From contig CBDAFS010000030.1 of the NCBI GenBank assembly GCA_965195285.1, positions 1 through 64,000 of the forward strand: DNA of 64,000 nt, written 5' to 3'. Below the pieces are notes generated by a model, which saw only the letters and a list, made by a program, of their open reading frames with translations, was not told where the DNA came from and ran no database searches. The stretch comes from an uncultured Aminicenantes bacterium. GTDB lineage: Bacteria > Acidobacteriota > Aminicenantia > UBA2199. A program made the translations under genes and the position numbers. Positions 27,188 to 46,699 of the stretch are shown here, in pieces; the first letter of the stretch is position 1; every line of letters begins with the position of its first letter.

Positions 27188-27196
27188 TTTATTAAC

Positions 27197-27420
27197 ATTG
27201 AATAATGAATATCGAATAACGAACACCGAATATCGAAGGAAAGAAATATCTTACAAACCTTGAAATTTAAACATCGAACAAAGAATAATAAATGTTGAAG
27301 GAAAAGAATCATCTTGAAAACATTGAATAATGAATATCGAATAACGAACACCGAATGTTGAAGGGAAAAAACATATTATTCATAGTGAATCATGAATATC
27401 GAATATCGAATAGCGAAGTG
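27197..27420 (+). repeat. Left arm: degenerate heptamer arrays (GAATATC/GAATAAC/GAACACC family) in about 60-nt blocks
   Basis: Visible tandem 7-mers; exact 38-nt direct repeat at 27194-27231 and 27319-27356. Confidence 0.9.
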
Positions 27421-27427
27421 AAAAGGC

Positions 27428-27799
27428 TCATTTTATATTATCATGTGCTGTTTTTATACTGGAAACAAAAATTGAAATCAGTTCATTGCATTCGAGTATA
27501 AGATCATCTACTTTATCGGAATGTTTAACAAGCGGTTTCCTTTTAATAATTTTCAGTGCAATGTATGTTTCTCTCAATTCCTTGAGTGCGATTTTCATTT
27601 TATGGATAAAATCTTTTCCGGACTCTGCACTCTGGGCCTCACCATATATTAAAGCAGGAGCAGTTCCGGACCTGATTATTTGACCTCCGATATAATTTCC
27701 ATTTCTTGTATTTGGCAACTGTTCAGCTAAACTTAATATATTAACAGAAAAAGAAATCAATCTTTCTTCCAAATCATATTTTTTTTTCTCATCAATCAT
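27428..27799 (-). CDS. Four-helix-bundle protein (TIGR02436 / 23S-IVP / Avd-like)
   Basis: DLEERL..F, QIIRSGTAPAL.YGEAQSAES.KDFIHK.KIALKELRET, E.NELISIF. Confidence 0.93.
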   Translation of the reverse strand: MIDEKKKYDLEERLISFSVNILSLAEQLPNTRNGNYIGGQIIRSGTAPALIYGEAQSAESGKDFIHKMKIALKELRETYIALKIIKRKPLVKHSDKVDDLILECNELISIFVSSIKTAHDNIK

Positions 27800-27932
27800 G
27801 CTTCAAAATTCATTATTCAATTTTTATCTTTTTACATTTCGTCATTCATTATTCATCATTCGATATTCGATATTCATTGGTTGATAATACTTCATCATTC
27901 CTTGTTCGACATTCGTTATTCGATATTCAAAA
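27800..27932 (-). repeat. Right arm: reverse-complement heptamer arrays (GATATTC/ATTATTC/GTTATTC)
   Basis: Inverted relative to 27197-27420. Confidence 0.9.
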
Positions 27933-27936
27933 CTTC

Positions 27937-30060
27937 TTATCTCTTGATTGAATCTTGCACGGCAAAAGTAGCCAGAGATGAAGCATAGAGTTCGTCGAAA
28001 GGAATGGGAGAGTGAGAACCGGTTTGGATGGCATTGAAGAAAGCCAATAATTCCTGTTGATGACCCCGATCCGGTCGTCTCAGCCTGAAAGAAGAGATTT
28101 TATTACCGTAAATCTTCATGGATTTGAAATCATTGATGGTCACCGATTGTCCGCTGCAGAAAATTTCCAAGTATTCGGCCGGCAACCGTCTATGTCCGTT
28201 GGAATAGTAGCTGATGGTGGCGATGCTGCCATTGTCAAAACCCAGGCTGATCACCAAGGTATCCTGAAGGTGAGCCGGATCTCTCAGGCTCTTGGCCGAA
28301 ATGGATGAGACCTCGCCACCGGACAGGAAGATGACCAGATCCACAAACTGACACACTTCACTGATGATTACCCCGCCACCGGTTTCGGGATCATGCACCC
28401 AATGGTCTTTGGGAAATTTTTCGCCATTGATCCGGTAATTGATAGCCTTTGGTTTTTCCGGAGGAAACAGTTCTTTTGCCTTTTGAATAAAGGGAGCAAA
28501 GCGGCGGTTAAAACCTGCCATCAGAACAGGAAGCGGCTGGCTGCGGTTGACCAATAGCCGGTGGGTTTCCCAGATGCGTTTCAGGTCATCCTTGGTCATG
28601 GCCAAAGGCTTTTCTACAAATACATGCTTGCTCATGGTCAGGGCCTTGACAACAAATTCCGCATGGAGATCGTTTCGGGTGGTGATAAATACCGTGTTGA
28701 TACGGTCATCGGCAATGATCTCATCGGCATTGCCGGTACTGTAGGCAAAGCCGTATTTGTCAGCTACCTGGCGGGCATTGTGGCTTCGGGCCGTAATCAC
28801 CCCCACCAGATTGCAGTGTTTCCGGATAAACGGTAAAATCGTTTTGCGGGCAAATCCTCCGGCACCGACAAATCCCACGGCCGGATCGACCGGGTCGGTT
28901 GGTTTTTCCTTTAAGGTTACTTTTTTGGAAAGTTCCTTTTCGCTGTCATAATCAATCACCACGCCGCAAAAAGGCTCGGACCGGCTGAGGATCATGGTGT
29001 AGATCTCCGGGGTATCCACCAGGGGAACCGTATGGGAAATCAATTGATCCACCTGTAATTTCTTATTATTCAACAATTCAATATAAGATTGCAGATTGCG
29101 GTTTTCGGTCCAGCGCACATAGCCGATGGGATAATCCTTTCCCCTTATTTCATAAAAGGGATCTTGGCTGCCGGGTCCGTAGCCGCAGGACATACGCAAA
29201 TCCAACTCTTTACGGAAATAGGGTTTACGGTCAAAACCGGTGGCTACTTTTCCGATCACCACCACTTTTCCTCGCTGGCGACACAATAGCCCGGCCAGAT
29301 TCACCGGATCGGTGGTGGTGGAATCCGCAGCGATAATGACCGCATCCACCCCGTTTCCCTGAGAAATTTCGGAAACGATGTTTTCCAATTCCGGATCAAG
29401 GAAATTCAGGGCAGTTATGGTTTTCAAGCCGGCCAACCCATTTACCCGGGCTTTATCACTGTCAACTCCTATCACATCCACGCCGGCTGCCTGCAATACC
29501 TGGATGACCAGCCGGCCGATCAACCCCAGTCCGATCACCACCGCCTTCTCGCTCAGGCGCAGATCAGCCTGGCGCACCCCCTGAATGGCAATAGCGGCAA
29601 TCCCCGCAAAGGCAGCCTGTTTCAAATCGTTTTTCCCGGGGATCTTCACACAGAGGTTCCGGTTGACTGCCACCACATCGGCATGCCATGCCCCTTTTCC
29701 TGCACAGGCCACTTGATCACCGATTTTGATGTCATTGACCTCGTTGCTGACCGCAATGACTTCTCCGGAGCAGCTGTTGCCCAGGGTGGAAGATGCTTCA
29801 AGCTTGTTCATGACCATACGGTAGGTATCGGCCAAACCGCTCTTCTTGATCTGTTCAATAACCTGACTGACCTCGTTTTTTCGGGATATGGCCCGGGCAA
29901 TATATCCCCCCCGGGCCGCCTTGACCATGTTGCCCTCTTCTCCGCCGCTGATTACCGAATAGTGGTTTCTCACCAACACCTGGCCCCGGCCTAATACCGG
30001 AAAGGGAACTTCCAGAATCCGTATGACACCCTTCATTTTTGTGTAAGTTAGTTGTTGCAC
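27937..30060 (-). CDS. Bi-domain oxidoreductase (Zn-ADH-like + Gfo/Idh/MocA)
   Basis: VIGLGLIG, S.GYGPG..D..YE..G.DYPIGYVRWTENRN, VGAGGF, HVFVEKPL, GFNRRFAP. Confidence 0.9.
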   Translation of the reverse strand: MQQLTYTKMKGVIRILEVPFPVLGRGQVLVRNHYSVISGGEEGNMVKAARGGYIARAISRKNEVSQVIEQIKKSGLADTYRMVMNKLEASSTLGNSCSGEVIAVSNEVNDIKIGDQVACAGKGAWHADVVAVNRNLCVKIPGKNDLKQAAFAGIAAIAIQGVRQADLRLSEKAVVIGLGLIGRLVIQVLQAAGVDVIGVDSDKARVNGLAGLKTITALNFLDPELENIVSEISQGNGVDAVIIAADSTTTDPVNLAGLLCRQRGKVVVIGKVATGFDRKPYFRKELDLRMSCGYGPGSQDPFYEIRGKDYPIGYVRWTENRNLQSYIELLNNKKLQVDQLISHTVPLVDTPEIYTMILSRSEPFCGVVIDYDSEKELSKKVTLKEKPTDPVDPAVGFVGAGGFARKTILPFIRKHCNLVGVITARSHNARQVADKYGFAYSTGNADEIIADDRINTVFITTRNDLHAEFVVKALTMSKHVFVEKPLAMTKDDLKRIWETHRLLVNRSQPLPVLMAGFNRRFAPFIQKAKELFPPEKPKAINYRINGEKFPKDHWVHDPETGGGVIISEVCQFVDLVIFLSGGEVSSISAKSLRDPAHLQDTLVISLGFDNGSIATISYYSNGHRRLPAEYLEIFCSGQSVTINDFKSMKIYGNKISSFRLRRPDRGHQQELLAFFNAIQTGSHSPIPFDELYASSLATFAVQDSIKR

Positions 30061-30080
30061 AGGTAATCTCTCATTTCTTT

Positions 30081-30150
30081 AGTAAGTAGTAGGTAGTAAA
30101 AAGTAGGTAGTAAGAAGTAGGTAGTAAGAAGTAAGTAGTAAGAAGTAAAA
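30081..30150 (+). repeat. Heptamer array (AGTAAGA/AGTAGGT) x10
   Basis: Ten consecutive AGTA-NNN units. Confidence 0.95.
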
Positions 30151-30177
30151 AAATAAACGATTTTCTGAAGACAATAT

Positions 30178-30567
30178 TTACTCCGTAATAATGCAAAACT
30201 TTTCAGGCTTATTTATCATTCCAAAAAGAATTCTTCCGAGTTCCTGATATTTTTCATACAATTTCGTATGCTTTTCTTCCTGAAGATATCCATGTTTGAA
30301 AGCAAAATCCAGCCATACTTCTGTCTCACTTGCTTCTCCGATCGAATCGGTTAATTTTAAAACAAAAGATTTCGGATATCTTCGCTTCGCCCATGCTTCA
30401 GTAATGTTAGCGGAAACAGATCGTGATGATCTTCTGATCTGATCAATTAAAGAATATTTTTCTTCTTTTGGAAAAGTTTTACTGATGTTGAAGATTTCAA
30501 CCGCTAGATCAAAACTCAACTGATATGCAATCAGATCTCTGTAACCCCGATACATAGTTTTTTCCAT
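30178..30567 (-). CDS. Four-helix-bundle protein (TIGR02436)
   Basis: YRDL.AYQ, FPKEEKYSLIDQIRRSSRSVSANI.EAW.KRRY, GEASETEVWL. Confidence 0.95.
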   Translation of the reverse strand: MEKTMYRGYRDLIAYQLSFDLAVEIFNISKTFPKEEKYSLIDQIRRSSRSVSANITEAWAKRRYPKSFVLKLTDSIGEASETEVWLDFAFKHGYLQEEKHTKLYEKYQELGRILFGMINKPEKFCIITE

Positions 30568-30571
30568 TATG

Positions 30572-30668
30572 TACTTCTCACTCCCTACTCCTTACTTCTT
30601 ACTTCTTACTTCTTACTTCTTACTCCTTACTTCTTATTGTTTTTTTTCTACTTACTATATACTACATA
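30572..30668 (-). repeat. Heptamer array (TACTTCT) x9 plus TACATAC-type units, inverted to 30081-30150
   Basis: Nine units at 30572-30634; further units run up to the epimerase stop codon. Confidence 0.95.
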
Positions 30669-31823
30669 CTAGATTTTATAAAATTCTTTATACCATTCCA
30701 CAAATTTTCGAATTCCCTCTTCCACCGGGGTATCCGGCCTGTATCCGGTATCCTTTTCAAGACTGGTGGTGTCAGCCCAGGTTTCCAACACATCGCCTTT
30801 TTGCAGGGGAAGGAAGTTTTTTTTGGCTTCTTTATTCATGGCCTTTTCAATAGCGGTGATGAATTCCATCAAGTTTACTGGTTTTCCTCTGCCAATGTTA
30901 TAGATTTTATACGGGGTGAGGAGCGAGAGGTCGGAGGTGAGGGGCTGGGAGTCTTCGAATGTCGAATGATGAATATCGAACGCCGAATTTCGAGTTTTTG
31001 ATTTTTGATTTACTTCTGAATTCGATATTCGGGATTCGTGATTCGGTGTTCGAAGATTGGGAGTTGGTGGTCTGTCCATAACCCGGGTGATGCCTTCGAT
31101 GATGTCATCGATATAGGTGAAATCCCGGCTCATCCGGCCCTGGTTGTAGACATCAATAGGCCGGTTTTTAATAATGGCCCTGACAAATTTAAAAGCCGCC
31201 ATGTCCGGCCGACCCCAGGGACCGTATACGGTAAAAAAACGAAGCCCGGTGGTGGGAATTTGGTAGAGGTGGCTGTAGGCATGGGCCATGAGCTCGCAGC
31301 TCTTCTTGCTAGCCGCATACAGAGACATGGGCTGGTCTACCATATCGGCCGTGGTAAAGGGCATTTTTTGGTTTAGGCCGTATACCGAAGAACTGGAAGC
31401 ATAGACCAGATGGTTGATCTCATGGTGGCGGCAGGCCTCCAGGATGTTCAGAAAACCTTGGATGTTGGAGTCCATATAAGCCTGGGGATTTTGCAAAGAA
31501 TAGCGCACCCCGGCCTGGGCTGCCAGGTGGCAGACCCGGTCGAATGGTTCTTGTTCGAACAGTTCGGTTATTTTTTCCCGATCCTCCAGGTTTAATTGGA
31601 TAAACCGGTAATTGTCAAGAGTCTGGCTTTCCACGGGGATTCCATACTGAATTTTCTCCGAATCGATTCCGGTGTCCTTCAGCCGGCCGTATTTCAGGTT
31701 GACATCATAGTAGTCATTGATATTGTCCAGGCCTATCAGCGTATGACCACTGTTTGCCATCTGTTTGACCAGGGAATGGCCGATGAATCCGGCGGTTCCA
31801 GTTATTAAGATCTTCAAGGTCAA
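30669..31823 (-). CDS. NAD-dependent epimerase (UDP-glucuronate 4-epimerase-like) with an in-frame repeat-derived insertion
   Basis: ITGTAGFIG, HLAAQAGVRYS, YAASKK, FFTVYGPWGRPDMA, RDFTYIDDI; TTG start with AGGAG RBS. Confidence 0.93.
   Translation of the reverse strand: MTLKILITGTAGFIGHSLVKQMANSGHTLIGLDNINDYYDVNLKYGRLKDTGIDSEKIQYGIPVESQTLDNYRFIQLNLEDREKITELFEQEPFDRVCHLAAQAGVRYSLQNPQAYMDSNIQGFLNILEACRHHEINHLVYASSSSVYGLNQKMPFTTADMVDQPMSLYAASKKSCELMAHAYSHLYQIPTTGLRFFTVYGPWGRPDMAAFKFVRAIIKNRPIDVYNQGRMSRDFTYIDDIIEGITRVMDRPPTPNLRTPNHESRISNSEVNQKSKTRNSAFDIHHSTFEDSQPLTSDLSLLTPYKIYNIGRGKPVNLMEFITAIEKAMNKEAKKNFLPLQKGDVLETWADTTSLEKDTGYRPDTPVEEGIRKFVEWYKEFYKI
30952..31056. mobile_element. 105-bp palindromic heptamer-repeat insertion inside the epimerase CDS
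   Basis: Ends TCTTCGAA...TTCGAAGA; arms of GAA-N4 7-mers; removal restores a GGAGTTG heptamer and keeps the frame. Confidence 0.8.
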
Positions 31824-31839
31824 GGTCTCCTTATATCAT

Positions 31840-31925
31840 AGGTTAAGGTTGAGGTTAAGGTAAAGAAAAAAACAGAAAATTTTTCCTGATTATCTCTCTT
31901 ATTCTTTTCCTTTATCTTTACCTCA
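31840..31925. repeat. Hexamer (AGGTTA/AGGTAA) array with inverted partner
   Basis: 31840-31865 versus 31909-31925. Confidence 0.7.
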
Positions 31926-32068
31926 GTCATCCAATCTTTCCTGCGGCCTTCGGCCGCCTGGGCTTCCGCCGGTACCCTTTTTCGGGGTTTACCGGGCCAA
32001 CCAAAAACAGGCTCAAACTCATCAATCTGGCTCATACTGATGATTTTCATTTATGGCTCAAGTCAGGA

Positions 32069-32077
32069 ATTATACCA
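32069..32077 (-). promoter_or_regulatory. Extended -10 promoter (TGGTATAAT) upstream of the polysaccharide operon
   Basis: Perfect TGnTATAAT, with TTTCAA 16 nt upstream of the -10 hexamer. Confidence 0.6.
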
Positions 32078-32106
32078 GAAAACAGTAAAATTGAAAGTGA
32101 ATTCTT

Positions 32107-33075
32107 CTATCTTCTGAATTTTTTTAATTCCCGCTCAAATCCATCAATCATCAGTTTTATTTCATGGTTCTCAATGGATTCCAGCATAAAACGCCTTACC
32201 ATCTGGGAAACCGCCACATAATCCATTTCCACCAGTTCCCCGATCTCCCGCAGCCGCAGGTCACTGTATTTCTTCAAACCATACAGGAACAGCTTTCGGA
32301 AGTGGTTGTTTTTGCGCTTTTTGTACAGCAGCTCTCTTTTAACCCTGAAGCGCCGGCATATGATGCGGGAGATATCTTCGGGTTGGAGCCGCCTCAGACT
32401 CTTCAGGGCCGGTTTTTCCCGGATCTCTCCCATTCTCAGGTCAGCCTCTATCTTGCGGGCAATCTTTCGGCGAAATTTTTCACCGCCTACGATCGACTGC
32501 ACCCCGTAGAAATCTTCTTTTTTTATCCCCTCATCCTGATTCAGCAGGTCATAGACATACTTGCGGTAAAATTTCTTTTTGTTATTAAATTCGCTCAGGA
32601 GTTCGGCGGTGACCAGCCATAGCGGCCGTTTTTCTCTGCCGATGTAGCGGGCAAAACTGCTCCAGGGGTAATCTTCGGGTTTTTTAACCTTACCCTCCCG
32701 CAACGGGGTCAGGTGGATGTAAGCGCTCAACCTCATCAAATAACCGTTTTTTTCCACCAGAACGGCCCGGTAGCGGCCCTGGAAAACCGAGCCCTTGACC
32801 CCGTACTTGAGCTTGAACCAGTTTGAGTAGCTGGAGTTTAAATGGTGCATACAGCGGGAGAGATTGCCCTCCGGGGTTTCGATGAGCATGTGGAAACGAT
32901 CGTCCAGAAGGGTATAGCAGTGGACCTTGAGGTTGAACTTATCCACCACCTCGCCGGTTTTTTCCAGGAATTTCAGCCGGTCAACCTTTTCATGAAAAAT
33001 CTTCTCATGCTTGTCTCCCTGGGACATCACATGGTAACAGGCGCCCTTGTACTCTATACGGGGTTGTCGAGCCAT
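32107..33075 (-). CDS. REP-associated tyrosine transposase (RAYT, Y1_Tnp) with C-terminal DnaA_C-like HTH; HUH motif degenerate
   Basis: MARQPRI, YHV, G.VFQGRY, YIHL.P, YPWSS; C-terminal LREIGE...DYVAVS; RFH replaces HxH. Confidence 0.88.
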   Translation of the reverse strand: MARQPRIEYKGACYHVMSQGDKHEKIFHEKVDRLKFLEKTGEVVDKFNLKVHCYTLLDDRFHMLIETPEGNLSRCMHHLNSSYSNWFKLKYGVKGSVFQGRYRAVLVEKNGYLMRLSAYIHLTPLREGKVKKPEDYPWSSFARYIGREKRPLWLVTAELLSEFNNKKKFYRKYVYDLLNQDEGIKKEDFYGVQSIVGGEKFRRKIARKIEADLRMGEIREKPALKSLRRLQPEDISRIICRRFRVKRELLYKKRKNNHFRKLFLYGLKKYSDLRLREIGELVEMDYVAVSQMVRRFMLESIENHEIKLMIDGFERELKKFRR

Positions 33076-33081
33076 TTGAGA

Positions 33082-33110
33082 AATGTATCACAGTAGATTT
33101 TAAATGTCAA
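33082..33110 (-). promoter_or_regulatory. Sigma70 promoter of the RAYT gene, probably leaderless
   Basis: TTGACA-17 nt-TACATT with TGn extension; ATG 6 nt after the -10 and no RBS. Confidence 0.7.
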
Positions 33111-33153
33111 ATGTTAAGACACGTCCCCAAGAGATTTAAAAGAAAAAGTACTC

Positions 33154-33479
33154 AGGTTGAGGTTAAGAAAGAAGGTTAAGGTTGAGGTTGAGGAAAAGAA
33201 AAAAACCACTGGTCATTAGAACTCTCTGGGGACTTGTCATTATATCTATCAAGTTCTTGTCATTGAAACCCTCTGATTTTGGTCATTAAGAACTATCATA
33301 ACATATCATTACAGTTCTCCAGGGTTCTTTATGACGCACGCATTATGTGCTAATGACAAGCTCTCTATAGATCTTAATGACACGAGCGAAGCGAGTAAAT
33401 GACCAGATTAGTGATATTCATCTTCAAAACTTCTTATCTTCTGAACTTCTGTCTCCTTAATTCTAAGGTTAAGGTTAAG
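33154..33479. repeat. Composite element A, copy 1: hexamer array + GTCATT/ATGAC 22-24 nt periodic array + CTTCT octamers
   Basis: GTCAT at 33212, 33236, 33259, 33282 (variant at 33305); ATGAC at 33331, 33353, 33377, 33399; homologous to 47336-47666. Confidence 0.85.
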
Positions 33480-33510
33480 AAAAAACTCTGTTTGTTTTTT
33501 TTTATCCTGT

Positions 33511-34842
33511 ATGTTACATTTATTTACGAAAAAGAGGAAACTTTCAGTGGAAGCGGAAAAGGAACTATATCAACTCAAACAGGAAAACCAGCGGCTGATG
33601 CGGGCCCTGGAAGAAGTGTCTATTTTAAACGAGATTGCCATTGCCATCAGCTCCACCCTGTCCCTGGACCGGATTCTGGACCTGGTGGTGCAGAAGAGCC
33701 TTAAACACATGAAGGCCGAACAGGGGGCGGTGCTGTTGCTGGATGAGAACAAAGAGGAAAAACCCTTCCAGACCATGATCCGGGGCTGGGATACCACCAC
33801 CGATACCCTGCCCTTCCGTCTGGACACCCAGCTCACCGGCTGGATGCTGAAAAACCGTCAACCCCTGCGCATCAATGACTTGAAAAAGGATGAGCGCTTC
33901 CACCTGGCCGACCCGGAGACCATTCCCATCCGTTCGCTGCTGTGTACGCCCCTAATGTTGAAAGGCCGCATGATCGGGTTGGTGACCCTGTTTAACAAAA
34001 AATCAGAAGAGGAATTCAGCAGTGAAGACCAGCGCATGATCTCTATCATCGCCGCCCAGTCAGCCCAGATCATTGAAAATGCCCGGCTGCTCAAAGAGGA
34101 ACAGGAACTGATCAAGATGCAGGAAGAGCTGAGGCTGGCCTTTGAGATTCAGACCAATCTGCTGCCGGAAAATCCCCCGGCCATAGAGGGATATGACATA
34201 TTCGGCAAAAGCATCCCGGCCAAGGAAGTGGGGGGGGATTATTTTGATTTTATCCCGGACCGTGAAACCCAGCTGGTTTTCTGCCTGGGAGACGTGTCGG
34301 GCAAGGGCATGGGAGCGGCCCTGCTCATGGCCAATCTGCAGGCCACCATCCGGGGCCAGTCCCAACTTGACCTGTCCATACCCGAATGCATGGGAAACGC
34401 CAACCGGCTGCTGTTCCGCAACACCAGCCCTGAGAAATTTGCCACCCTGTTTTACGGCTGGCTGGATTACCGGAATCATGAACTCCGTTACTGCAATGCC
34501 GGCCATAACCTGCCCATCCTTATGACGGAAAAAAAAGATTTCCAGCTGCTCAGTGAAGGGGGAATCATCCTGGGCTGCCTGGAAGCCGTGAGCTTCGAGG
34601 AACAGAAAATCCCCATCCGGACCGGAGATATCCTGCTAATCTATTCGGATGGCATCACCGAGGCCCTGGATGACCATGATCAGGAATTCGGCGAGGCCAG
34701 GCTGATGGAGTTGCTGAAGGAAAATATTGCTAAATCCGCCGTAGAGATGATCGACACCATCATTGACGGGGTCACCCGTTTCAGCCGGGATGCGCCCCAG
34801 ACCGATGACATGACCCTGATGATCATCAAACGTATCGGTTAA
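33511..34842 (+). CDS. GAF + PP2C/SpoIIE phosphatase (RsbU-like)
   Basis: GAF domain, then EVGGDYFD, GDVSGKG, NAGH, YSDGITEA, DDMT. Confidence 0.93.
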   Translation: MLHLFTKKRKLSVEAEKELYQLKQENQRLMRALEEVSILNEIAIAISSTLSLDRILDLVVQKSLKHMKAEQGAVLLLDENKEEKPFQTMIRGWDTTTDTLPFRLDTQLTGWMLKNRQPLRINDLKKDERFHLADPETIPIRSLLCTPLMLKGRMIGLVTLFNKKSEEEFSSEDQRMISIIAAQSAQIIENARLLKEEQELIKMQEELRLAFEIQTNLLPENPPAIEGYDIFGKSIPAKEVGGDYFDFIPDRETQLVFCLGDVSGKGMGAALLMANLQATIRGQSQLDLSIPECMGNANRLLFRNTSPEKFATLFYGWLDYRNHELRYCNAGHNLPILMTEKKDFQLLSEGGIILGCLEAVSFEEQKIPIRTGDILLIYSDGITEALDDHDQEFGEARLMELLKENIAKSAVEMIDTIIDGVTRFSRDAPQTDDMTLMIIKRIG

Positions 34843-34878
34843 ACCAAAGATATTTTTGATATAAATGGGGAGGATATC

Positions 34879-35661
34879 ATGTATATGCGTTTGCTTCAAT
34901 TAAAAATTAAACCCGAAGGCCTTGAACTGGCCCAACATTATTACAAAGACACGGTGGTGCCCCGGTTACGCACCATGCCGGGATGCCGGTTTGCCCGGCT
35001 GATCCAGAACCACTCCGAGCCCAGTGATTTGATATCCATGACCCTGTGGGAACGCCGGCAAGATGCCGAGGCCTTCCAGCAGAGTCCGGTCTTCAAGCAG
35101 ATGATGGCCGAGTTTTCCGTATTTTTAGCCGATAGTTCGGTCTGGAAGATACAGTTGAGCCAGAAGCTGGAACTGGAATACCGGCCCAAAACCCAGGAAC
35201 CGGTGACCCAGGCCTTCCCGGTATCCACCCAGAAAATCCTGGTCAAGCCGGAAAATTGCGTATCTTCACCTCTGTTTGTGCGCATTGTCCAGCATAAGAT
35301 CCAGCCGGGTAAAATGGAAGAATTCCGGAAACTGTACCGGGAAAGCATTATTCCCGTTCTGGAAAAAACCCGGGGCTGCTGTTCGGCCTATCTGATGGAA
35401 AACATGCAGAACGGCGAAGAAGTGGTGTCCATCACCGTCTGGGAAAACCAGCGGGCTGCGGAAGATTATGAACAGAGTGGACAGTTTCAGGTATTGATCG
35501 ACCGGGTCAAACACTGCTACACACGGCTCTTTCAGTGGAAAATGTCTTTGGCCCAAAATGGGGAAAAGCAGGCCAAGACCAGCGATGATATGCAGGTGGA
35601 TCATTACACCGTGGTTTCAGGGGAGGAGTTTGGGGATTCACCAACAAAAAACAGGACTTAG
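34879..35661 (+). CDS. Tandem antibiotic-biosynthesis-monooxygenase (ABM) domain protein
   Basis: Two repeats of R....KI.P...Y....P.L....GC..A.L....SxT.WE....AE.(Y/F); GGGAGG RBS. Confidence 0.8.
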   Translation: MYMRLLQLKIKPEGLELAQHYYKDTVVPRLRTMPGCRFARLIQNHSEPSDLISMTLWERRQDAEAFQQSPVFKQMMAEFSVFLADSSVWKIQLSQKLELEYRPKTQEPVTQAFPVSTQKILVKPENCVSSPLFVRIVQHKIQPGKMEEFRKLYRESIIPVLEKTRGCCSAYLMENMQNGEEVVSITVWENQRAAEDYEQSGQFQVLIDRVKHCYTRLFQWKMSLAQNGEKQAKTSDDMQVDHYTVVSGEEFGDSPTKNRT

Positions 35662-36172
35662 GTTAAGGTAAAGGTAAAGGTTGAGGTTAAGGTTAAGAAA
35701 AAAAATAAAACTATTAAAACCTCCTTAATTTTCATATCTCTTTACCTTTACCTTTGCCTCAACCTTAGAATTAAGAAGTCAGGAGATAGAAATCCGAAAT
35801 CCCAAATTCTAAATCCGAAACAAAGAGATTATTAATAAACATTGAATGATGAACACCAAATATTGAATGATGAATATCGAATAACGAACACCGAATATCG
35901 AAGGAAAGAAATATCTTACAAACCTTGAAATTTGAACATTGAACAAAGAATATCGAATGTCGAAGGAAAATAATCATCTTAATTAACAGTGAATGATGAT
36001 CACCGAATGTCGAATCATGAATGTCAAAGTGAAAGATTCATTTTTTTTTACACTTCATCATTCCTTGTTCGTTATTCATTATTCGAAATTCAAAATTAAA
36101 TACTATTTTCCTTTACCTTAACTTTTGCCTTTACCTTTACCTTTACCTTTACCTCTACCTTTACCTTTGCCT
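35660..36172. repeat. Intergenic repeat mosaic: hexamer hairpin, AAATCCG heptamers, gene-less four-helix-bundle cassette, hexamer array
   Basis: Modules at 35660-35767, 35790-35824, 35841-36095 and 36110-36172 fill almost the whole space between two convergent stop codons. Confidence 0.88.
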
Positions 36173-39100
36173 TTATTTTACCTTTAGTTCAAAGCTCTGT
36201 GAATGGCTGTTAAACTCCGGGGCATACATGCATTCGATGTGGGCCATGCCGCTCTGAAACCGGCCCCGGTGTACCACCCGAAGGGAATATTCAAACACAT
36301 AGGTCCCCTTGGGCAGGTAATCAATGAAAAAATGGGTGGCTGTATCCAGGGTGGATTCGTAATAAGCCAGTCCGTCCTGGAACTTATATCGGGATAGCAC
36401 ATTCACCGGTTCCAGGCCGCTGCCCCGATGGTCTTTCATATGGACATACTCCATATCCCGGTCGGTTCGCAGCTCGATCCGGACCACTAACAGATCACCC
36501 ACCCCCAGGCTCCCTTGATAGGGTTCGATCATCGGTCCTTTGTCGGTGAAGCGGCGCACAAACAGGCGCTTCTTCAGTTTCAGGGGATTTCCGGTATGGG
36601 GGGTGATTTTTGAGATATCTTCCAGGTACTGCCAGTGAACCCCGCCCCAGGCAATGCCCTTGTCCTTTTTGGAAACCGTAATCCGGCCCATATCCGCAAT
36701 AATATCCCGGGGCTGATAGACCTTTTCATAGTAACCGGTCCCGGCTTCCGGTTTTTCGATTTCCACCTTTTGGCCACCCAGGGTGACCTCTACCGGTAAA
36801 TCCGAAGCCAGCAAGTCGTCTCCCCGCAGCAGCACCGCATACACCGCATCGGCAGTGGCCTTGGTGGTTTTCCAGTCCCGGGCCTGCTTTTGTTTCAGCA
36901 GCCACACCTTACATTCCTCAACAGCCTGGTGGTCTCCCATTACTTCATCAAAGGCCTCGATCATCACGGCCTGGGTTTCGATGGGAGCCCGGAACCACCA
37001 CCAGGACAGTTCCGTTTCCCGCCAGTAACGGCCTAATTCCTCATTGAACCGGCTCCTTTCCTTGATGGAATGCATGATTTTACGGGCAGTTACCGAATCC
37101 CCGAAGCGGTTCAGGGCCAGGGCCAGCTGGGCCTGATTCTGGCGATGGCTCAGCTTCAGCCAGTACTCACGGGCCTGTTGGAGAAAATAATCCACGGCTT
37201 TCTGGTATTTTGAAGAAAGCGGATGCTTTTTCAGATAATAACTGCGGCCGTACAGGTACAGGGCAACCCGGGAACCCAGATTATTGGATTTCAGATGTCC
37301 CCTGGACACAATACGGTTGTAGACTTCCAGGATCCGGTTATCCAGGAACCGGATGGCTTTTCCGGTCAGGTCAAGGGGAATGTCATCCACGCCCAGGTGT
37401 CGGAGCCGGCCGAAACCGGTAACAATATAGAGAGTAATATAATGGTTACCCGGTCCCCCCGGAAACCAGGGCCAGGAGCCATCACTCAGCTGCATGTCTT
37501 CTAATTTCAGGTAGGCGCGTTTCAATTCCCGGTCCAGTCGGTTTTCATCGAAGAGCAGGCCGACCCGGTGTTTGGCCTGGGTTTCATTTTGGGCCTGCCT
37601 CACCCAGGGGCTTTCCCGCAACAACACACTTTTCAGATCCGGGTTTTTTTCCAGGTTGGACTTCAGAGCCCCGCTTGCCTTCCAGCGGTTAAAAATCCGG
37701 TGGATTCGGGGATCGGAATGGGCGATGTGGCGGGCCAGGCCATTGGCATAGAGCCGGTTGAATACCTGCTCGGAACACTCATGGGGAAATTCCATCAAGT
37801 AAGGCAGGGCCTGGACCGCATACCAGGCCGGATTGGAGGTCATCTGAACGGTCAGTCCTTTGTGAACCAGGGTTTTAGAGCCGGAGGAAAGGGACAGTTT
37901 TCTGAACTCGAACCGTTTTTCCCCCTGCTTGCTGATCCACAGGGGTATGGATTCCCGCACCAACAGCCGGCGGCTCAAAACCGGCAGAACTCCCTCTTCG
38001 CCGTCAGAATATTCTTCAGTGGCACCCACGGCCCGGAAAGCCACCATATCCAACCCATCCGGGACCTTAATCCGGAATCTCAGGGTCCGGGACTGTTTGG
38101 AGGGGATGGAGAAGGTCTGGTCTTTATCCCGGTTGTTCAGGGAATCATCCAGGGAGGTTTCATTCTGTGGATTAAAAAATTGGAGCCTCAATGACCCGCT
38201 TTCCGGTTTATCCGACATATTGGTTACCTTTACGGTGAATTCGAGCTCATCACCCTCCCTTAAAAACCGGGGCGGGTTGGGCTGGACCATGAGGTCCTTG
38301 CGGGTTATGGAGCGGCCTTCGATGCTGCCGTATTTCATATCAATGGTATGCGCAAAACCGATAAACCGCCATTCGGTCAGGGCTTCGGGCATTTTAAATT
38401 CAATGGTCACGGACCCGTCCCCGGCGGTCTTCAGATGGGGATAAAAGAAGGCGGTTTCATTTAAATTCTTTCTGGCCTGGACTTTGGAAAGATCAATTTT
38501 TTTTCCACCCTTATCCCTGTCTCCATTTCGTTTTGTCTCCTTTATGGTGGCATCCTTTCCTCCGGAAACTCCGTTAATATCTTCGTATGACAGCACCAGG
38601 GCCTCCCCAAGCGCTTTACTGAACATTTCTTCGGGCCTTAACACCTTCTGTTTGCTGACATGTCGTCTGGACCCGTACTGGTAACCGAAGAGGCTCTGGA
38701 TCACCTCTTGGGGAAAGTGCGCATAATTGGCTGCTGAATATGAATAGCGGACATTCAGGCGGTTGATAAAATTTGAGAAATCAATCCCTTGGTTGGAAAA
38801 CCGCAAACGCAGGGAAGTACTGTCCGCATCGAAAAGGTTTGAAAAACCCTGAAAAAAATGGGGATAGTACTGGTCCAGTGACACATCATAGAGGGTGGCC
38901 ACCATTTCCGCGGCCCTGATTTCAGAACCCGGACCCTTGATCTTAAGAGACCAGGTTTCCTTCTGGCCCGGTTCCAGGGTGGAGCGGAAGGTCTGCCACT
39001 GGAGTTGCAGTTGTTTGTTATACCAGGGCACATAGACCCGGGTGGTGGTTTGATACTGGCGATTCTGCTTGACCAGGGTGGCTACCAGGGTAAATCCACC

Positions 39101-42100
39101 CCGCAATTTTTCATCGATGGGAATCCTGATCAATCCCTGGGTCTGGCCCGGAGAAGTCCAGGATTTTTTCAGCCATTGGTTATCCTTGAATATTTCAATC
39201 AGCACCGGTCCCTGTTCATAACCGGTCCCCCACAGGGCTTCGAAGGTCTCACCTACCGGCAGCACCGCCTGTTTAACGGTAAAATAAAAAGGCAGTTTTA
39301 CTGGAAAATGTTTTTTATCCTTCTGGTGAACTAAAAAATGCAAATAGGCCCGTACCGGGTTTCCATACCGGTCCTGGCTGGTCAGACAGGCCCGGTATAC
39401 CCCCGGTTTTAGTTTGGCTTTCACTTCACAGGCATGACCGGAATTTTCTGAAGTCCGGAAAGCCTGTTTGAATACCCGGCGGCCCGAGGGCCATTTTTTC
39501 CAGTCCGGGGAATCTCTGAAGTTTCCCGGCTGGTCCGGAGAAGCGATTTCCATCTCCCGAATACCCACTTCACCAATCAGGTCGCGGGGAACAGGTTGTG
39601 AAGGCCCTTGCAAGGCGAAAATCTCAACGTTTCCCACAGCCCCTGTTCGCTGACCATTGAGATTGATGGTATTGACAGTAATGCATACCGGGCGGTCCTG
39701 TTCCTGCCAGTTCTGGCAATTCAGGGAGGCTTCCATTGAGGTATAACCCAAGCGTACCCGGGTTTCATCCCCCCTGGTCTCCCCTGCCCCATCGGTCACT
39801 TCAGCCTGGAGTTTAAATGAAAAAACCGGTTGGCTGGAACGAGGTAGGCTGAGATCAGGCCGGGCCCTGAAGGTAATACAGAACTTACCGCTTTTATCGG
39901 TTTTCAGGGTACCGTGGATGATTTCCCGGGCTTCAGCCCGTTGTGGCCCCCTGTGCCAGTAATACCACCAGTTGGGGAAGCGGACTTCACGCACCACCCG
40001 GTAACTGACCCGGGCATGGTCGATGGGGGCCCCGGTGTAGCTGCGAGCCTCACCGCAGACCGTTACCCGGTCATTCAGGCGGAACTCACGGTCGGGCAGC
40101 TTCAGATCGACCTGAAACTTGGGCCGTTTATAGGCTTCCACCCGGATGGCAGTAACACCCCGGGGAGAATCGGCAACCAGGGTCATCCGGCCGGTCAGAC
40201 GGTCCCGGGGAGCCATGAAGGTTCCACTGAAACTGCCAAAATCATTGGAAACCAGTTTCTGCCGGGCAACTTCCTGGTTGTTGACATCCCGAATACTGAC
40301 TCCAACCCTCTGGTTGGGAAAAACCCGGTAATTATGAGTCCGGGGATCCAGCTCCAGGCAGATGCCCTTGAAGCTGATCATTTGACCCGGGCGGTAGAGT
40401 GAACGATCGGTGAAGAAAACGGTTTTAAAGCTCCGTTTTTTATGAATTGAATGACCGGGGGAAAGCCCGGTATCGCAATATAATCCGAGCCGGTCGGAGG
40501 TTATTGTCACCAGGCGGTTGTAATTGGTTTCAGACCCGCTTTTTTGTTCCCTGAAATATCCCCTCGTATCGGTATGCAGGAGCTGTTGTTCATGATATGC
40601 CCGGGACTGATAGTCGTAACGGTAAATCCTGACCGCTGCCCCGGAAGCGGGCGTACCGGAAACCGCATCCAGGACATAACCTTCAAAAATTCGATTTCGA
40701 CCCCGCAGTACCAGGGCCACCCGGCTGACCCAGAGCGGGCTGCTCTGGATTTTATTGGAAGTATCGTTAAAATCCTCTTTATAACTGGCCAAAATCCGGT
40801 AAAAACCCGGGCTCATGGCCGGGACCTCAACAGACTGCTTCCGGCTCTGGTAATCCTCGGTAGGCTTCAATGAAACCGACCATTCTGCCATTGGTTTTTC
40901 AGTCAGCATCTGCCGGAGTACTGATTCGGGTAATCGGTTAAACTGTTTTTTATTTTTCCCCTGGAGATAGTCTTGCAAGTTGTCCCGGACAATTCTGAAG
41001 TTCACTGTCCGGATATTTTTATATTCCACTGTGAACCAATAAGGTTGATCCGGTATGATGACTTTTTCAGTCTTCAGATGAAACTGCTTTTCCTTGATCC
41101 GGGACAGCAGGGCCAGACAATTCTGTCCACCGCGGGATTTGGAAAAATTTTCATGGCCACGGCTGGCAATCTTAACAGCCTTTATTAACTTTCCCTGTTT
41201 TTTCAACTCATGAGCCCGGTAATAAGCGGCCAGACTTGACAATCGGGAATCGGGATAGCTCGACATGATTTCCTGTAACCGCTTGCTATAACGATCGGCT
41301 ACCGCCTCTCCAACGGCTTCATTTCGGACATACCTGAGGCGGTGAATATCAATATCGATGAAGGCATCCCGGGTTTTATCATGCCGGTGAAAAAGCATGA
41401 GCTTCTGATAGAGCCGCAGGGCTAAATAACGGGGAGAATCGGTATCAATGGTTTTGATGTTCCAGGCCATGAATTGGGGGGCCGGGGCCAGGGCCGGGCT
41501 ATCGGACCGGATATCAAAGGCCTGTTCGGGTCTCGCCGCAACCTGTTCACCGGAACTGTAAAAACGGAGAGCCTCCTGGGCCACAAAATCATACAGGGTC
41601 GGACGCAGGCCAATGGGAAGGCTTCCCTTGACTAAGAAATCGTAATAACGATCAACGGGAATTTTTTTCAAGCGGTTCTCGTCCTTTAAAACAGCCTTGA
41701 AGAGTGAGGAAATCTCATCAAACAATTTTGGCAGGTCCCAGGTGGTAAAATCCTTTTCATTCAGCCCGGCTGTACGGGAACGGTTCAGAAAACGCCAGCG
41801 ATTGCGGGAAAAATAATGCCAGTACCACTGGGCCTGCACCACCTGCATCAGGGGTCTCATTTCCGGCCGGACCTGTTCAATCTCCGCTTTCAGCCGGTTA
41901 ATTTTTTCCTCGGGCCGGTTGCCCTCGATCACCGATTCCAGAACGATTCGCTGGACAAGGGCCTTCAGGGCCTCCGCCTGTCGGTTCTGATCCAGAGCCA
42001 GATTGTATATGCGGTTCAGGTATTTTATCGCTGTTTTGGGCAGTCCGTCTTTTTCGGCCTGGTTGACTTTTTTCCATAACACCCGGGGGTCGGTTTCCCT

Positions 42101-42184
42101 GATATCTCCCTGCTGGCCGATTCCCTGGGACAGCATCAGGACGATTAAAAAAATACAGATAGTAATAAACCTGAATTTGGTCAT
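36173..42184 (-). CDS. Bacterial alpha-2-macroglobulin family protein
   Basis: Signal peptide, FTDRSLYRPGQ (MG2), YKRPKF, R.NLNETAFF, PRFLREGD, thioester motif CSEQ, YAPEF; GAGGAG RBS. Confidence 0.95.
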   Translation of the reverse strand: MTKFRFITICIFLIVLMLSQGIGQQGDIRETDPRVLWKKVNQAEKDGLPKTAIKYLNRIYNLALDQNRQAEALKALVQRIVLESVIEGNRPEEKINRLKAEIEQVRPEMRPLMQVVQAQWYWHYFSRNRWRFLNRSRTAGLNEKDFTTWDLPKLFDEISSLFKAVLKDENRLKKIPVDRYYDFLVKGSLPIGLRPTLYDFVAQEALRFYSSGEQVAARPEQAFDIRSDSPALAPAPQFMAWNIKTIDTDSPRYLALRLYQKLMLFHRHDKTRDAFIDIDIHRLRYVRNEAVGEAVADRYSKRLQEIMSSYPDSRLSSLAAYYRAHELKKQGKLIKAVKIASRGHENFSKSRGGQNCLALLSRIKEKQFHLKTEKVIIPDQPYWFTVEYKNIRTVNFRIVRDNLQDYLQGKNKKQFNRLPESVLRQMLTEKPMAEWSVSLKPTEDYQSRKQSVEVPAMSPGFYRILASYKEDFNDTSNKIQSSPLWVSRVALVLRGRNRIFEGYVLDAVSGTPASGAAVRIYRYDYQSRAYHEQQLLHTDTRGYFREQKSGSETNYNRLVTITSDRLGLYCDTGLSPGHSIHKKRSFKTVFFTDRSLYRPGQMISFKGICLELDPRTHNYRVFPNQRVGVSIRDVNNQEVARQKLVSNDFGSFSGTFMAPRDRLTGRMTLVADSPRGVTAIRVEAYKRPKFQVDLKLPDREFRLNDRVTVCGEARSYTGAPIDHARVSYRVVREVRFPNWWYYWHRGPQRAEAREIIHGTLKTDKSGKFCITFRARPDLSLPRSSQPVFSFKLQAEVTDGAGETRGDETRVRLGYTSMEASLNCQNWQEQDRPVCITVNTINLNGQRTGAVGNVEIFALQGPSQPVPRDLIGEVGIREMEIASPDQPGNFRDSPDWKKWPSGRRVFKQAFRTSENSGHACEVKAKLKPGVYRACLTSQDRYGNPVRAYLHFLVHQKDKKHFPVKLPFYFTVKQAVLPVGETFEALWGTGYEQGPVLIEIFKDNQWLKKSWTSPGQTQGLIRIPIDEKLRGGFTLVATLVKQNRQYQTTTRVYVPWYNKQLQLQWQTFRSTLEPGQKETWSLKIKGPGSEIRAAEMVATLYDVSLDQYYPHFFQGFSNLFDADSTSLRLRFSNQGIDFSNFINRLNVRYSYSAANYAHFPQEVIQSLFGYQYGSRRHVSKQKVLRPEEMFSKALGEALVLSYEDINGVSGGKDATIKETKRNGDRDKGGKKIDLSKVQARKNLNETAFFYPHLKTAGDGSVTIEFKMPEALTEWRFIGFAHTIDMKYGSIEGRSITRKDLMVQPNPPRFLREGDELEFTVKVTNMSDKPESGSLRLQFFNPQNETSLDDSLNNRDKDQTFSIPSKQSRTLRFRIKVPDGLDMVAFRAVGATEEYSDGEEGVLPVLSRRLLVRESIPLWISKQGEKRFEFRKLSLSSGSKTLVHKGLTVQMTSNPAWYAVQALPYLMEFPHECSEQVFNRLYANGLARHIAHSDPRIHRIFNRWKASGALKSNLEKNPDLKSVLLRESPWVRQAQNETQAKHRVGLLFDENRLDRELKRAYLKLEDMQLSDGSWPWFPGGPGNHYITLYIVTGFGRLRHLGVDDIPLDLTGKAIRFLDNRILEVYNRIVSRGHLKSNNLGSRVALYLYGRSYYLKKHPLSSKYQKAVDYFLQQAREYWLKLSHRQNQAQLALALNRFGDSVTARKIMHSIKERSRFNEELGRYWRETELSWWWFRAPIETQAVMIEAFDEVMGDHQAVEECKVWLLKQKQARDWKTTKATADAVYAVLLRGDDLLASDLPVEVTLGGQKVEIEKPEAGTGYYEKVYQPRDIIADMGRITVSKKDKGIAWGGVHWQYLEDISKITPHTGNPLKLKKRLFVRRFTDKGPMIEPYQGSLGVGDLLVVRIELRTDRDMEYVHMKDHRGSGLEPVNVLSRYKFQDGLAYYESTLDTATHFFIDYLPKGTYVFEYSLRVVHRGRFQSGMAHIECMYAPEFNSHSQSFELKVK

Positions 42185-42310
42185 CTCGATTCTCCTCGTT
42201 TGACTTGGTTATACCACATTTCTCTCAACAAAAAAAAGTCTGTCATTCATGGTTTGACATCTCCGGGAGTTTGGTCGGACAAGGAGTCCGGATTGGACAG
42301 AGGGAAATGA

Positions 42311-42695
42311 AGGTTTAGGTTAAGGTAAAGGTAAAGGTAGAGGTAAAGGTAAAGGTAAAGACGTGAAACGTAAAGAGTAAAAGGTGAAGACGTAAGGCGT
42401 AATACGTAAAGCGTAAAATGTGATTGGTAATTGGTTAACTGTAGGGGCGAATGGAAATTCGCCCAATTGTTTATATCGATTTTTCATATTGGTTGTAATA
42501 ATCATCTCTTTCAGGGCAAACCGCCGTTTGCCCCTACAACAATTTTTCTCCTAATCTAAATTTGTTTTTGTTTTGAATTTTGGACATTTGAGTTTTGAAT
42601 TTGTTTCGGATTTAGAATTTGGGATTTCGGATTTGTTTCTTCTGGATTCTTACTTCTGAGTTAAAGGCAAAGGTAAAGGTAGAGGTAAAGGTAAA
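42311..42695. repeat. Intergenic repeat mosaic with GTAG REP doublet
   Basis: Hexamers 42311-42360, CGTAA heptamers 42361-42417, REPs 42441-42464 and 42514-42537, heptamers 42600-42634, hexamers 42664-42695. Confidence 0.88.
42441..42537. mobile_element. REPIN-like doublet of GTAG-family REPs
   Basis: GTAGGGGCGAATGGAAATTCGCCC ... GGGCAAACCGCCGTTTGCCCCTAC. Confidence 0.85.
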
Positions 42696-42872: not shown

Positions 42873-44090
42873 CTATTCAACCTGGATACAAACAATGGTG
42901 ATGTCATCGTGCTGCTGGGCCGGGGCGGAAAACTCCAGGATGCGATCCTTGATGCCCATGATCATATCGGTGGAGCTGAGCCGTTGTTTGCCCAGGAGCT
43001 TCAGGTGATCCTCCAACCGCTGATTGCCATACATTTCCAGGTCACTGTTCATGGCCTCGTTCACCCCGTCGGTATACAGCAGCAAAATATCACCGGACTG
43101 CAACTTCAGTGAAACGGATTCATAGCGGGGCGAGGCCATGACCCCCAGGGGGAAACGGTCTCCGGGATTTTTCAGCACCTCAATCCGGTCAGCGCGCAGC
43201 AGCAGGGGCCGGGTCTGACCGGCATTGACAAAATCCATCCGCCGGGAATCCACTTCCAGAGCCAACATGAAGGCGGTCACAAAGCGGTTTCGGTCCGGAC
43301 GGGAGTACAGGGCCGAGTTGATGTTTTCCAAAACCGTTACCACATCGTTCTGGTGCTGAATTTCGGAGATGAAGGCCCCGCTGGTATACACAGCGGTAAA
43401 AGCCGCATCCATGCCCTTTCCCGAGACATCCACGATGGTGATGCCTAATTTTTGCTTCTGCTTCTGAAACCAGGCATAGTCAAAAAGGTCTCCTCCCACT
43501 TCAAAGGCCGGGATGCAGCATCCTGAGATATCAAACCCCCTGACCTCCGGGTCCTGTTCGGGCATCAGGCTCATCTGCATGTTACGGGCGGTTTCCATCT
43601 CGATCTGAATACGGTTGCGCTCTTCCCGCTCACTGGCCACCGCCCAGATCAACAGGTTAACCCCGGCCAGCACCAGGGTGGCAATCAGCAGGATGGTCAG
43701 CGGGCTCCCGAACTGCAAATAGGCAATACCCATGGCAATGGCAATCAACACAAAGGCATTCTGGACCAGCGGTTTGCGGTCCTGGGGAATGCGCTTGTAA
43801 ATCTCCTTGCTCCAGGTCAGGGAAAACATGGCAGCATCCTTCAATCCCACATTTTCCTTTTGCTTCTCGAACCGCTGCCGGTAGGATTCGCGTCCGTGAC
43901 GGATTGATTCCCAGGAACGATAGGCAATGAATCCGAAAATCACCAGCGACAGCAATTTTTCCACTAATGAATTCCACTGCCCGGTCTTGATCACGATGTA
44001 AATGCCCTCGGCCAGGTTCAGGACATAGATCAGCAGTATCACAAAGGCAAGTGTCTGAAGGGTGGATACTTTCCTGTTTTTGGCCGCCAT
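42873..44090 (-). CDS. Membrane-anchored PP2C/SpoIIE phosphatase
   Basis: About four N-terminal TM helices, EVGGDLFD, DVSGKG, YTDGVNEA, DDIT. Confidence 0.9.
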   Translation of the reverse strand: MAAKNRKVSTLQTLAFVILLIYVLNLAEGIYIVIKTGQWNSLVEKLLSLVIFGFIAYRSWESIRHGRESYRQRFEKQKENVGLKDAAMFSLTWSKEIYKRIPQDRKPLVQNAFVLIAIAMGIAYLQFGSPLTILLIATLVLAGVNLLIWAVASEREERNRIQIEMETARNMQMSLMPEQDPEVRGFDISGCCIPAFEVGGDLFDYAWFQKQKQKLGITIVDVSGKGMDAAFTAVYTSGAFISEIQHQNDVVTVLENINSALYSRPDRNRFVTAFMLALEVDSRRMDFVNAGQTRPLLLRADRIEVLKNPGDRFPLGVMASPRYESVSLKLQSGDILLLYTDGVNEAMNSDLEMYGNQRLEDHLKLLGKQRLSSTDMIMGIKDRILEFSAPAQQHDDITIVCIQVE

Positions 44091-46479: not shown

Positions 46480-46699
46480 AGGTTAAGGTAGAGGTTAAGG
46501 TTAAGAAAAAAATTGTTGTAGGGGCAAACGGTGGTTTGCCCGAATCAGAAATCTATTACAAATTGATCAAAAAAGAATAGGGCGAATTTCCATTCGCCCC
46601 TACAGTTAACCAATTACTAATCACATTTTACGCTTTACGTATTACGCCTTACGTCTTTTCCTTTACCTCTACCTTTAACTTTACCTTCACCTTAACCTC
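46480..46699. mobile_element. REPIN-like doublet (46518-46603) nested between inverted hexamer arrays; inverted copy of 42387-42545
   Basis: 46580-46657 is the reverse complement of 42387-42464 with one mismatch. Confidence 0.88.

Follow-up and report, generated by a model that had tools for sequence, protein, structure and literature searches.

The spacer between the converging genes for an ABM-domain protein and an alpha-2-macroglobulin in the 64-kb window analysed here (contig C30 of the Aminicenantes genome G000, which comprises 3.28 Mb in 62 contigs and is 94.9% complete) contains a stretch at 35858–36097 that resembles the two ends of a small gene cassette standing 8.6 kb away. The question raised by this locus is whether the stretch derives from such a cassette, and how it came to be there without the gene. 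An earlier note had described it as a gene-less copy of four-helix-bundle cassette 1, either a non-autonomous derivative or the empty state of a dispersed, bounded element. To our knowledge, the PF05635 proteins of rRNA intervening sequences (IVSs), the family concerned here, have been without a known function since 1993. The origin of heptamer arrays in bacteria is likewise unexplained. Because a single genome contains a filled copy as well as gene-less ones, and because the arms are conserved among relatives of the cassette-1 protein, it becomes testable whether the protein binds its arms, whether the stem is cut and whether hairpins jump.

Cassette 1 is on the minus strand. Its gene (27428–27799) encodes a 123-aa four-helix-bundle protein of the 23S-rRNA-IVS/Avd family, which scored 41.7 bits against PF05635 (cut-off 33.8) and 73.4 bits against TIGR02436 (cut-off 24), placing it in both families, and which matched PDB entry 2rld with an E-value of 1e-11. 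No nuclease, recombinase or transposase domain was found in this protein with Pfam and NCBIfam. The gene is bracketed by two arms. The arm downstream of the stop codon (27194–27427; repeat family D4) consists of four units of ~62 nt spaced 62, 63 and 62 nt apart, whereas the arm upstream of the start codon (27800–27935) has two or three units, the outermost of which (27889–27932) is common to the gene-less copy. The upstream arm is built of GAAnnnn words with a 7-nt period and the downstream arm of their complement (nnnnTTC), and the predicted duplex of the two has an energy of −95.5 kcal/mol. The orthologous cassette of the related genome G003, which stands beside the same right-hand neighbour and encodes a protein that is 88% identical, carries only one short unit per side. 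All six PF05635 genes of G000 are bracketed by complementary 7-nt-periodic arms, the word differing from cassette to cassette. Four of the six lie on the same strand within ~10.6 kb (G000:C42:16140-26775), each with its own heptamer arms, among membrane and polysaccharide-type genes.

The Avd proteins of diversity-generating retroelements share this fold family; here, however, neither a reverse transcriptase nor a template/variable repeat pair accompanies the gene. The cassette-1 protein had no match to the Avd model, and the window's cassette-2 protein matched it weakly (29 bits, cut-off 80). PF00078 reverse transcriptase was not found in the 94.9%-complete G000, which speaks against a retro-type route or origin of the hairpins.

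We searched the cassette arms against the whole genome with blastn. Positions 35859–35980 matched 27194–27315 with 92.6% identity over 122 nt (E 2e-46), and 36052–36095 matched 27889–27932 with 90.9% identity over 44 nt (E 5e-11), in good agreement with the matches that the earlier note had counted by hand from 35862–35980 and 36052–36095. In a pairwise MAFFT alignment of the filled cassette with the gene-less copy, ORF 27428–27799 formed a single large gap; its absence from the copy was thus also borne out. The two arm matches are separated by 71 nt (35981–36051), comprising a third GAA-type unit (~35991–36030), a stop-codon-like string and a T-run. The 18-nt stop-codon-like string that had been reported between the arms is present, but it is not the only sequence there. 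The core of the copy (35985–36097; E 5e-30 in an nhmmer search with a profile of seven copies) consists of a GAA-type arm extending to ~36039, a T-run loop at ~36040–36051 and a TTC-type arm at 36052–36095; in this gene-less form the arms close into a hairpin of ~113 nt. To its left lie two extra GAA-type units of ~62 nt each (35858–35980; repeat families D4 and D5), which have no partner arm and whose nearest match is the filled-cassette arm at 27194–27315.

Two assembled contigs from Logan cross the join. One from run X1 (261 nt, 0 differences) spans 35904–36164, and one from run X3 of a separate study (370 nt, 4 differences, 12 gaps) spans 35873–36230; none of the contigs listed bridged 35820–35869. 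As independent contigs of two studies cross the join, it is not a misassembly, a possibility that the earlier note had raised against its own reading. From its homology to the filled cassette and the missing ORF we conclude that the stretch at 35858–36097 is genuine and derives, minus the gene, from a four-helix-bundle hairpin cassette.

A genome-wide census was carried out with the nhmmer profile built from seven hairpin copies. G000 contained four full gene-less hairpins (C39:117657-117770, C30:35985-36097, C42:668-780 and C30:30954-31053), one partial copy (C15:132273-132351) and one filled cassette, the PF05635/TIGR02436 gene being the only gene in the filled form. Self-blastn and exact 8-mer seeding were too strict for the imperfect arms and mainly yielded a different IS/MITE family, one with GGGG-type inverted repeats. 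Tandem Repeats Finder (TRF) detected 49 AAAGGT/AACCTT hexamer arrays and several heptamer arrays in G000; because periods of 6–12 nt are all common at a loose threshold, we draw no claim of enrichment from these counts. Among 41 related genomes, G000 included, core hairpin matches longer than 100 nt were confined to the genus. The best matches were two in G003 (87% and 84% identical over ~119 nt) and one in G002 (92% over 77 nt), all at sites other than those of G000. The description of the arms as dispersed therefore applies both within G000 and across the genus.

Alignment of the gene-less copies with filled cassettes showed that the ORF is missing almost exactly, and that the join is identical in every copy: it retains the bases just before the start codon on one side and, on the other, the final two or three codons together with the stop codon. 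A common join fits spread as a gene-less unit. A rival account holds that the copy is an inert local scar, left when the cassette 8.6 kb away was duplicated once or served as donor in a gene conversion and the ORF was then lost, that the other copies are decayed cassettes, that slippage changes the number of units and that nothing moves. It is in keeping with this account that the 122-nt segment matches the filled cassette nearby more closely (92.6%) than the core at 35985–36097 matches the other gene-less copies (82–88%), that arm-unit number varies between the orthologous cassettes of G000 and G003, and that half-hairpins exist. Independent decay, however, would not be expected to produce the identical ORF-sized join at unrelated sites in three species, or gene-less copies that outnumber the filled one. 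The left arms of different copies differ, and no compensating changes were seen in the right arms.

The second gene-less hairpin in the window also bears on this point. It lies at 30954–31060 on the minus strand (nhmmer E 5e-19), is of the GAATATC type and is in frame inside the ORF of an NAD-dependent epimerase (30669–31823, minus strand), which stays open. A copy within a coding gene is unlikely ever to have held a whole cassette, which again argues against decay. The hairpin makes the gene 32 codons longer here than its orthologue in G020, which has no array there; in G001, the orthologue carries at this position 25 codons of another heptamer array, also in frame. Such arrays can thus add dozens of codons to enzymes. 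Rickettsia palindromic elements are known for in-frame insertion in coding genes, and the epimerase copy resembles them in leaving the frame unbroken.

Comparison of orthologous sites between congeners revealed rapid turnover. At one site in G002 (C34), ~250 nt of arrays plus a hairpin separate two genes, whereas the same genes in G000 (C50) meet in a bare TGATG stop/start overlap; this difference is a further argument against the inert scar, which we consider rather unlikely as an account of the hairpins. The site of the G003:C348 hairpin is occupied by other heptamer modules in G000 (C20), with flanks that are 95% identical and a CTTAACC array kept in both. At the site of the G000 C39 copy, a single arm is present in G003, its fusion with the upstream gene falling precisely at the loop, and the modules found in G001 are of quite another kind. 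Target-site duplications were not legible at these sites, where orthologous flanks are 80–95% identical, the ends lie within other repeat arrays and contigs break. From these comparisons we conclude that the hairpins, like the arms of other lineages, gather at gene junctions and turn over fast in DNA: they appear, are swapped for other modules and are halved at the loop, and arm units are duplicated. The description of the copy as a bounded element is consequently only partly right. There is a hairpin with a fixed join, but because arms also stand singly, as in G003 at the C39 site, or in unequal number, as with the two extra left units here, the independent occurrence of arms that the earlier note had named as counterevidence is found in part.

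The hairpin is itself one module in a larger mosaic of short-period arrays. To its left, at 35660–35840, a small AGGTAA/CTTTACC hairpin is followed by CAGGAG and AAATCCG arrays (repeat families D1–D3, inverted pairs I2 and I11), and this order of modules is repeated beside the C42 copy. To its right, a CTTTACC hexamer array at 36099–36190 (repeat family D2, inverted pairs I8 and I11) overlaps the stop codon (36173) of the alpha-2-macroglobulin gene, and a T-run plus a CTTTACC-type array follows the TTC side in every gene-less copy with a recorded downstream flank. Hexamer arrays of this kind, with AGGTTAAGG / CCTTAACC units, form the arms of filled four-helix-bundle cassettes in G001 (L243, G001:C265:1540-1854; L256, G001:C262:1686-2000); in G000 the AGGTTAAGG / CCTTAACC arrays, 49 by TRF, are gene-less only.

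Location and folding could also suggest that the hairpin is kept as an RNA useful to the host, for instance because it stabilises 3' ends, is processed by RNase III or insulates the ABM-domain gene from the alpha-2-macroglobulin gene that converges on it, comparable to the REP/BIME elements of E. coli; its likeness to the cassette would then reflect a common sequence source. The copies at C39 and G003:C348 also lie between convergent genes, and arm complementarity is kept within cassettes. The whole 551-nt spacer, which has no other terminator-like site, folds far better than shuffled sequences (−145.5 kcal/mol, z −5.1). The core hairpin alone, however, folds as one hairpin on the plus strand with only a modest advantage over shuffles (z −2.05, and −0.89 on the minus strand), which is weak folding. 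It also differs from an intrinsic terminator, having neither the G+C-rich stem nor the U-tract (T-run) of one, and no terminator-like site was found in 35500–36300. No Rfam family matched at threshold; sub-threshold matches were miRNA-precursor-like only. Moreover, copies also occur in frame in a coding gene and at an operon junction, and orthologous sites of congeners lack the hairpin or hold other modules, so that no single site depends on it. A role of this kind is conceivable, but we do not think it probable.

We chose 80 metagenome loci by protein similarity to the cassette-1 protein alone (55–88% identity; hereafter the c1 lineage). Flanks of 100 nt or more were available for 74 of them, and 72 of the 74 shared at least 10 heptamer positions with the G000 arm lexicon, with a median of 46. 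The corresponding control value was 9 for the wrong strand, 7 for distal flanks (n = 47) and 13.5 for the surroundings of 40 other PF05635 genes from relatives. Third codon positions in the same genes are saturated, with an identity of 0.317 at a mean amino-acid identity of 62%. The arm alignments nevertheless beat shuffles (13.7 and 16.1 versus 8.7 and 8.5). The median distance from the upstream arm to the start codon is 5 nt, and that from the stop codon to the downstream arm is 8 nt. The c1 protein lineage keeps its arm sequence across MAGs whose labels cover six phyla or candidate phyla, and what is new here is that relatives selected by protein alone carry the same arm words despite saturated synonymous sites. 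As gene and arms go together in 72 of these 74 loci, the filled form is the older unit, and the suggestion that the copy represents an empty state, a landing site awaiting its gene, is the less likely half of the earlier reading.

The arms of one cassette also pair better with each other than with those of other cassettes. Duplexes of 90-nt arms were compared with those formed with 12 random partners each. Cognate c1 arm pairs gave −40.3 kcal/mol versus −31.7 kcal/mol for mismatched c1 arms; the cognate pair exceeded the mean of its 12 mismatched pairs in 56 of 72 cassettes and was the best of 13 in 21 of 72 (5.5 expected by chance), an advantage that may come in part from correlated arm lengths. 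Gene-less copies folded slightly better on the plus strand, but folding of c1 cassettes showed no strand asymmetry, the sense strand being better in 40 of 72.

This tie between arms and protein is not general. Among 22 Bacteroidota relatives of the cassette-2 protein (44–59% identity), the 7-nt period is kept (lag-7 identity 0.39) but the arm sequence is not, the lexicon median being 4.5 and the top core trinucleotide, AGT, occurring in only 6 of the 22. Arm–protein specificity as a general rule was therefore rejected, since the arms of the cassette-2 relatives have many different sequences. One phage and 27 plasmid records matched the c1 protein, all at less than 60% identity (46% for the best listed); they represent other four-helix-bundle lineages and were rejected as c1 carriers.

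An 18-nt arm word was found in at least 122 stretches of species-representative genomes, against a chance expectation of 35–73. In 80 of these at least 122 loci, the match extended to at least 30 nt in 44 and did not extend beyond 21 nt in 21. Six of the 80 had a four-helix-bundle gene within 1.5 kb, and in five of the six this gene and the cassette-1 protein shared 56–60% identity; the titles of their records assign the five to Armatimonadota, Ignavibacteria, two Chitinophagaceae and Calditrichia. Where a genome contained an arm-word locus with no gene, a c1-type gene (E 1e-25 or better) was present elsewhere in that genome in 22 of 37 cases. In an even sample of 150 Bacteroidota genomes, 21 held a c1-type gene. 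Scanning with one mismatch allowed (the reversed control pattern gave one match in 151 genomes) revealed arm words at a distance from the gene in 9 of the 21 gene-holders and in 7 of the 129 others (Fisher p 2e-5), although these counts ignore kinship and could reflect common descent alone. Enrichment of arm words in genomes that hold the gene and better pairing within the arms of one cassette are, like the arm conservation, new here. Gene-less copies also occur where a c1 gene was not found, namely in the 70%-complete G002, and 7 of the 16 arm-word-holding Bacteroidota likewise gave no c1 gene.

Repeat families tied to a gene lineage are known from REPIN/RAYT systems, in which inverted copies of one repeat flank a single-copy Y1 HUH gene, numerous hairpins with no gene stand in intergenic spacers, and the repeat sequence and the gene lineage co-occur in one genome. 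HUH enzymes such as those of IS200/IS605 and RAYTs act on single-stranded DNA hairpins. The c1 cassettes are similar in that their arm lexicon is tied to the protein lineage (72 of 74) and arm words are enriched in gene-holders (9 of 21 versus 7 of 129). They differ in that the flanked gene encodes a four-helix bundle with no HUH/Y1 domain and that the tie fails for the cassette-2 relatives. A miniature inverted-repeat transposable element (MITE) is a short non-coding hairpin derivative of a longer gene-bearing unit, its parent encoding a transposase. The hairpins resemble MITEs in their terminal inverted repeats and multiple dispersed copies (G000, G002 and G003). Unlike MITEs, they have no transposase-encoding parent, only a PF05635/TIGR02436 gene, and the arms are internally periodic; no target-site duplication could be read at ends that lie within other repeat arrays. 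The behaviour of the hairpins is thus REPIN/RAYT- and MITE-like, but they lack what defines those systems, a parent gene of transposase type.

A parent of that type could be sought elsewhere in the genome, with Y1 (HUH, IS200-like) transposase-type genes moving the hairpins as RAYTs move REPs and the four-helix-bundle gene as mere cargo. G000 has 17 PF01797 matches, most of them in open frames of ~300–330 aa, and the window gene at 32107–33075 stands between AGGTTAAGG arrays. Seven such genes, however, are bracketed by their own 24–32-nt inverted repeats starting with GGGG rather than by heptamer arms, and arm words that track the c1 protein lineage across phyla would not be expected for mere cargo. 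We regard movement by these genes as very unlikely. The product of the gene at 32107–33075 (minus strand), 322 aa long, combines a Y1 (IS200-like) transposase domain with a DnaA C-terminal helix-turn-helix. Y1 genes are present on G000 contigs C8, C14, C61, C47, C31, C46, C50, C15, C26, C9, C27, C49, C21 and C12. The GGGG repeats around the seven genes are spaced ~890–1010 nt apart, and repeat pairs only ~155 nt apart (C15:122687, C53:37423 and C53:42600) look like miniature derivatives.

The closest described thing is the ORF-bearing 23S rRNA IVS. As described in PMC4990558, such IVSs in Coxiella burnetii and Leptospira carry an S23p (PF05635) ORF in a loop, with terminal inverted repeats forming the stem; in Coxiella, tandem heptamer repeats whose copy number varies between strains lie just upstream of the ORF, ORF-less counterparts exist, and a sporadic distribution has led to suspicion of horizontal transfer. 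The cassettes are alike in the PF05635 protein, the complementary ends that form a stem around an ORF or a short loop, the heptamers and the ORF-less forms. They are unlike it in location, the copy here lying between ABM-domain and alpha-2-macroglobulin genes with no rRNA match in 26900–36400, and in their long 7-nt-periodic arms, their multi-copy gene-less form and their mosaic arrangement with the arms of other lineages. PF05635 genes have been seen in rRNA insertions of CPR bacteria as well (PMC11270868).

Heptamer repeats themselves have been described. According to PMC4679880, TAACTGA-type heptamer direct repeats occur in Beggiatoaceae, Cyanobacteria and Bacteroidetes, with several kinds of unit per spacer, a cross-phylum distribution, an unexplained mechanism and contigs that break; the terms 'intervening sequence', 'four helix' and 'S23' are absent from its text. 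The repeats described there are direct repeats upstream of genes with no link to PF05635, whereas those described here are inverted pairs around, or derived from, a PF05635 gene. Judged by layout, the cassettes also differ from integron attC sites, in that their arms pair across the gene whereas a whole attC site lies downstream of its ORF. PF05635 genes wedged in cas operons were noted in 2013 and read as functional partners (PMC3936711); heptamer arrays have led PF05635 genes to be taken for members of their host operons, cas loci among them. Within a partial literature, supplements excluded, no paper was found in which PF05635 genes are connected with hairpins that have heptamer arms, lack a gene and lie outside rRNA. 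The hairpins form a little-described family, dispersed and modular, that lies between and even inside genes.

The most probable explanation for these results, in our judgement, is that 35858–36097 is a gene-less, MITE-like derivative of the c1 four-helix-bundle cassette lineage, of which 27194–27935 is the filled copy. The cassette consists of a small TIGR02436/PF05635 gene with complementary 7-nt-periodic arms that abut its start and stop codons. The arms would act as a pair, annealing to form a long stem in an operon transcript, comparable to the rRNA IVSs that are cut by RNase III, or annealing as single-stranded DNA. Gene-less copies may then arise by copying or recombination at the hairpin rather than by repeated independent loss of the gene. 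By analogy with REPIN/RAYT systems, the cognate four-helix-bundle protein would be the first candidate for a factor acting in trans, host enzymes or plain template switching being alternative agents. Against this explanation count the lack of any observed step of movement, the absence of a nuclease, recombinase or transposase domain from the protein, the gene-less copies in genomes in which no c1 gene was found, the modest folding advantage of the core, and left arms that vary between copies with no matching change in the right arms. A broader and much more speculative proposal, which we consider possible but doubtful, is that PF05635 proteins and heptamer-periodic hairpins form a mobile or self-maintaining system without a classical transposase, in which the trans-acting protein would recognise hairpins that bear its own arm words, much as a RAYT works on its REPINs. 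If this were true, one such system would explain rRNA IVSs, operon-wedged four-helix-bundle genes and the excess of heptamer repeats in bacteria.

Several other repeats were observed in and around the window. Contigs L013 (the end of G003:C48) and L014 (the start of G001:C315) stop no more than ~30 nt past the stop codon of the ABM gene, inside short-period arrays, and it seems that metagenome assemblies break where such repeats stand at gene junctions. The 2003-aa alpha-2-macroglobulin gene (36173–42184) is flanked by inverted copies of one short-period composite, 35729–35824 with 42600–42695 (96 nt, 83% complementary) and 36124–36178 with 42305–42359 (55 nt, 85%). Beyond it, a 99-nt inverted repeat (42374–42472 and 46572–46670; 93% complementary) surrounds 4.1 kb containing divergent ORFs at 42873–44090 (minus strand) and 44206–46413 (plus strand), with an adjoining inverted pair at 42514–42560 and 46495–46541. 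A GTCATT/AATGAC module with a word spacing of ~11–14 nt forms hairpin-like blocks of its own at 33200–33445 and 47392–47654, and is also found at G000:C15:131507-131561 and 132530-132584, beside the partial GAATATC hairpin.
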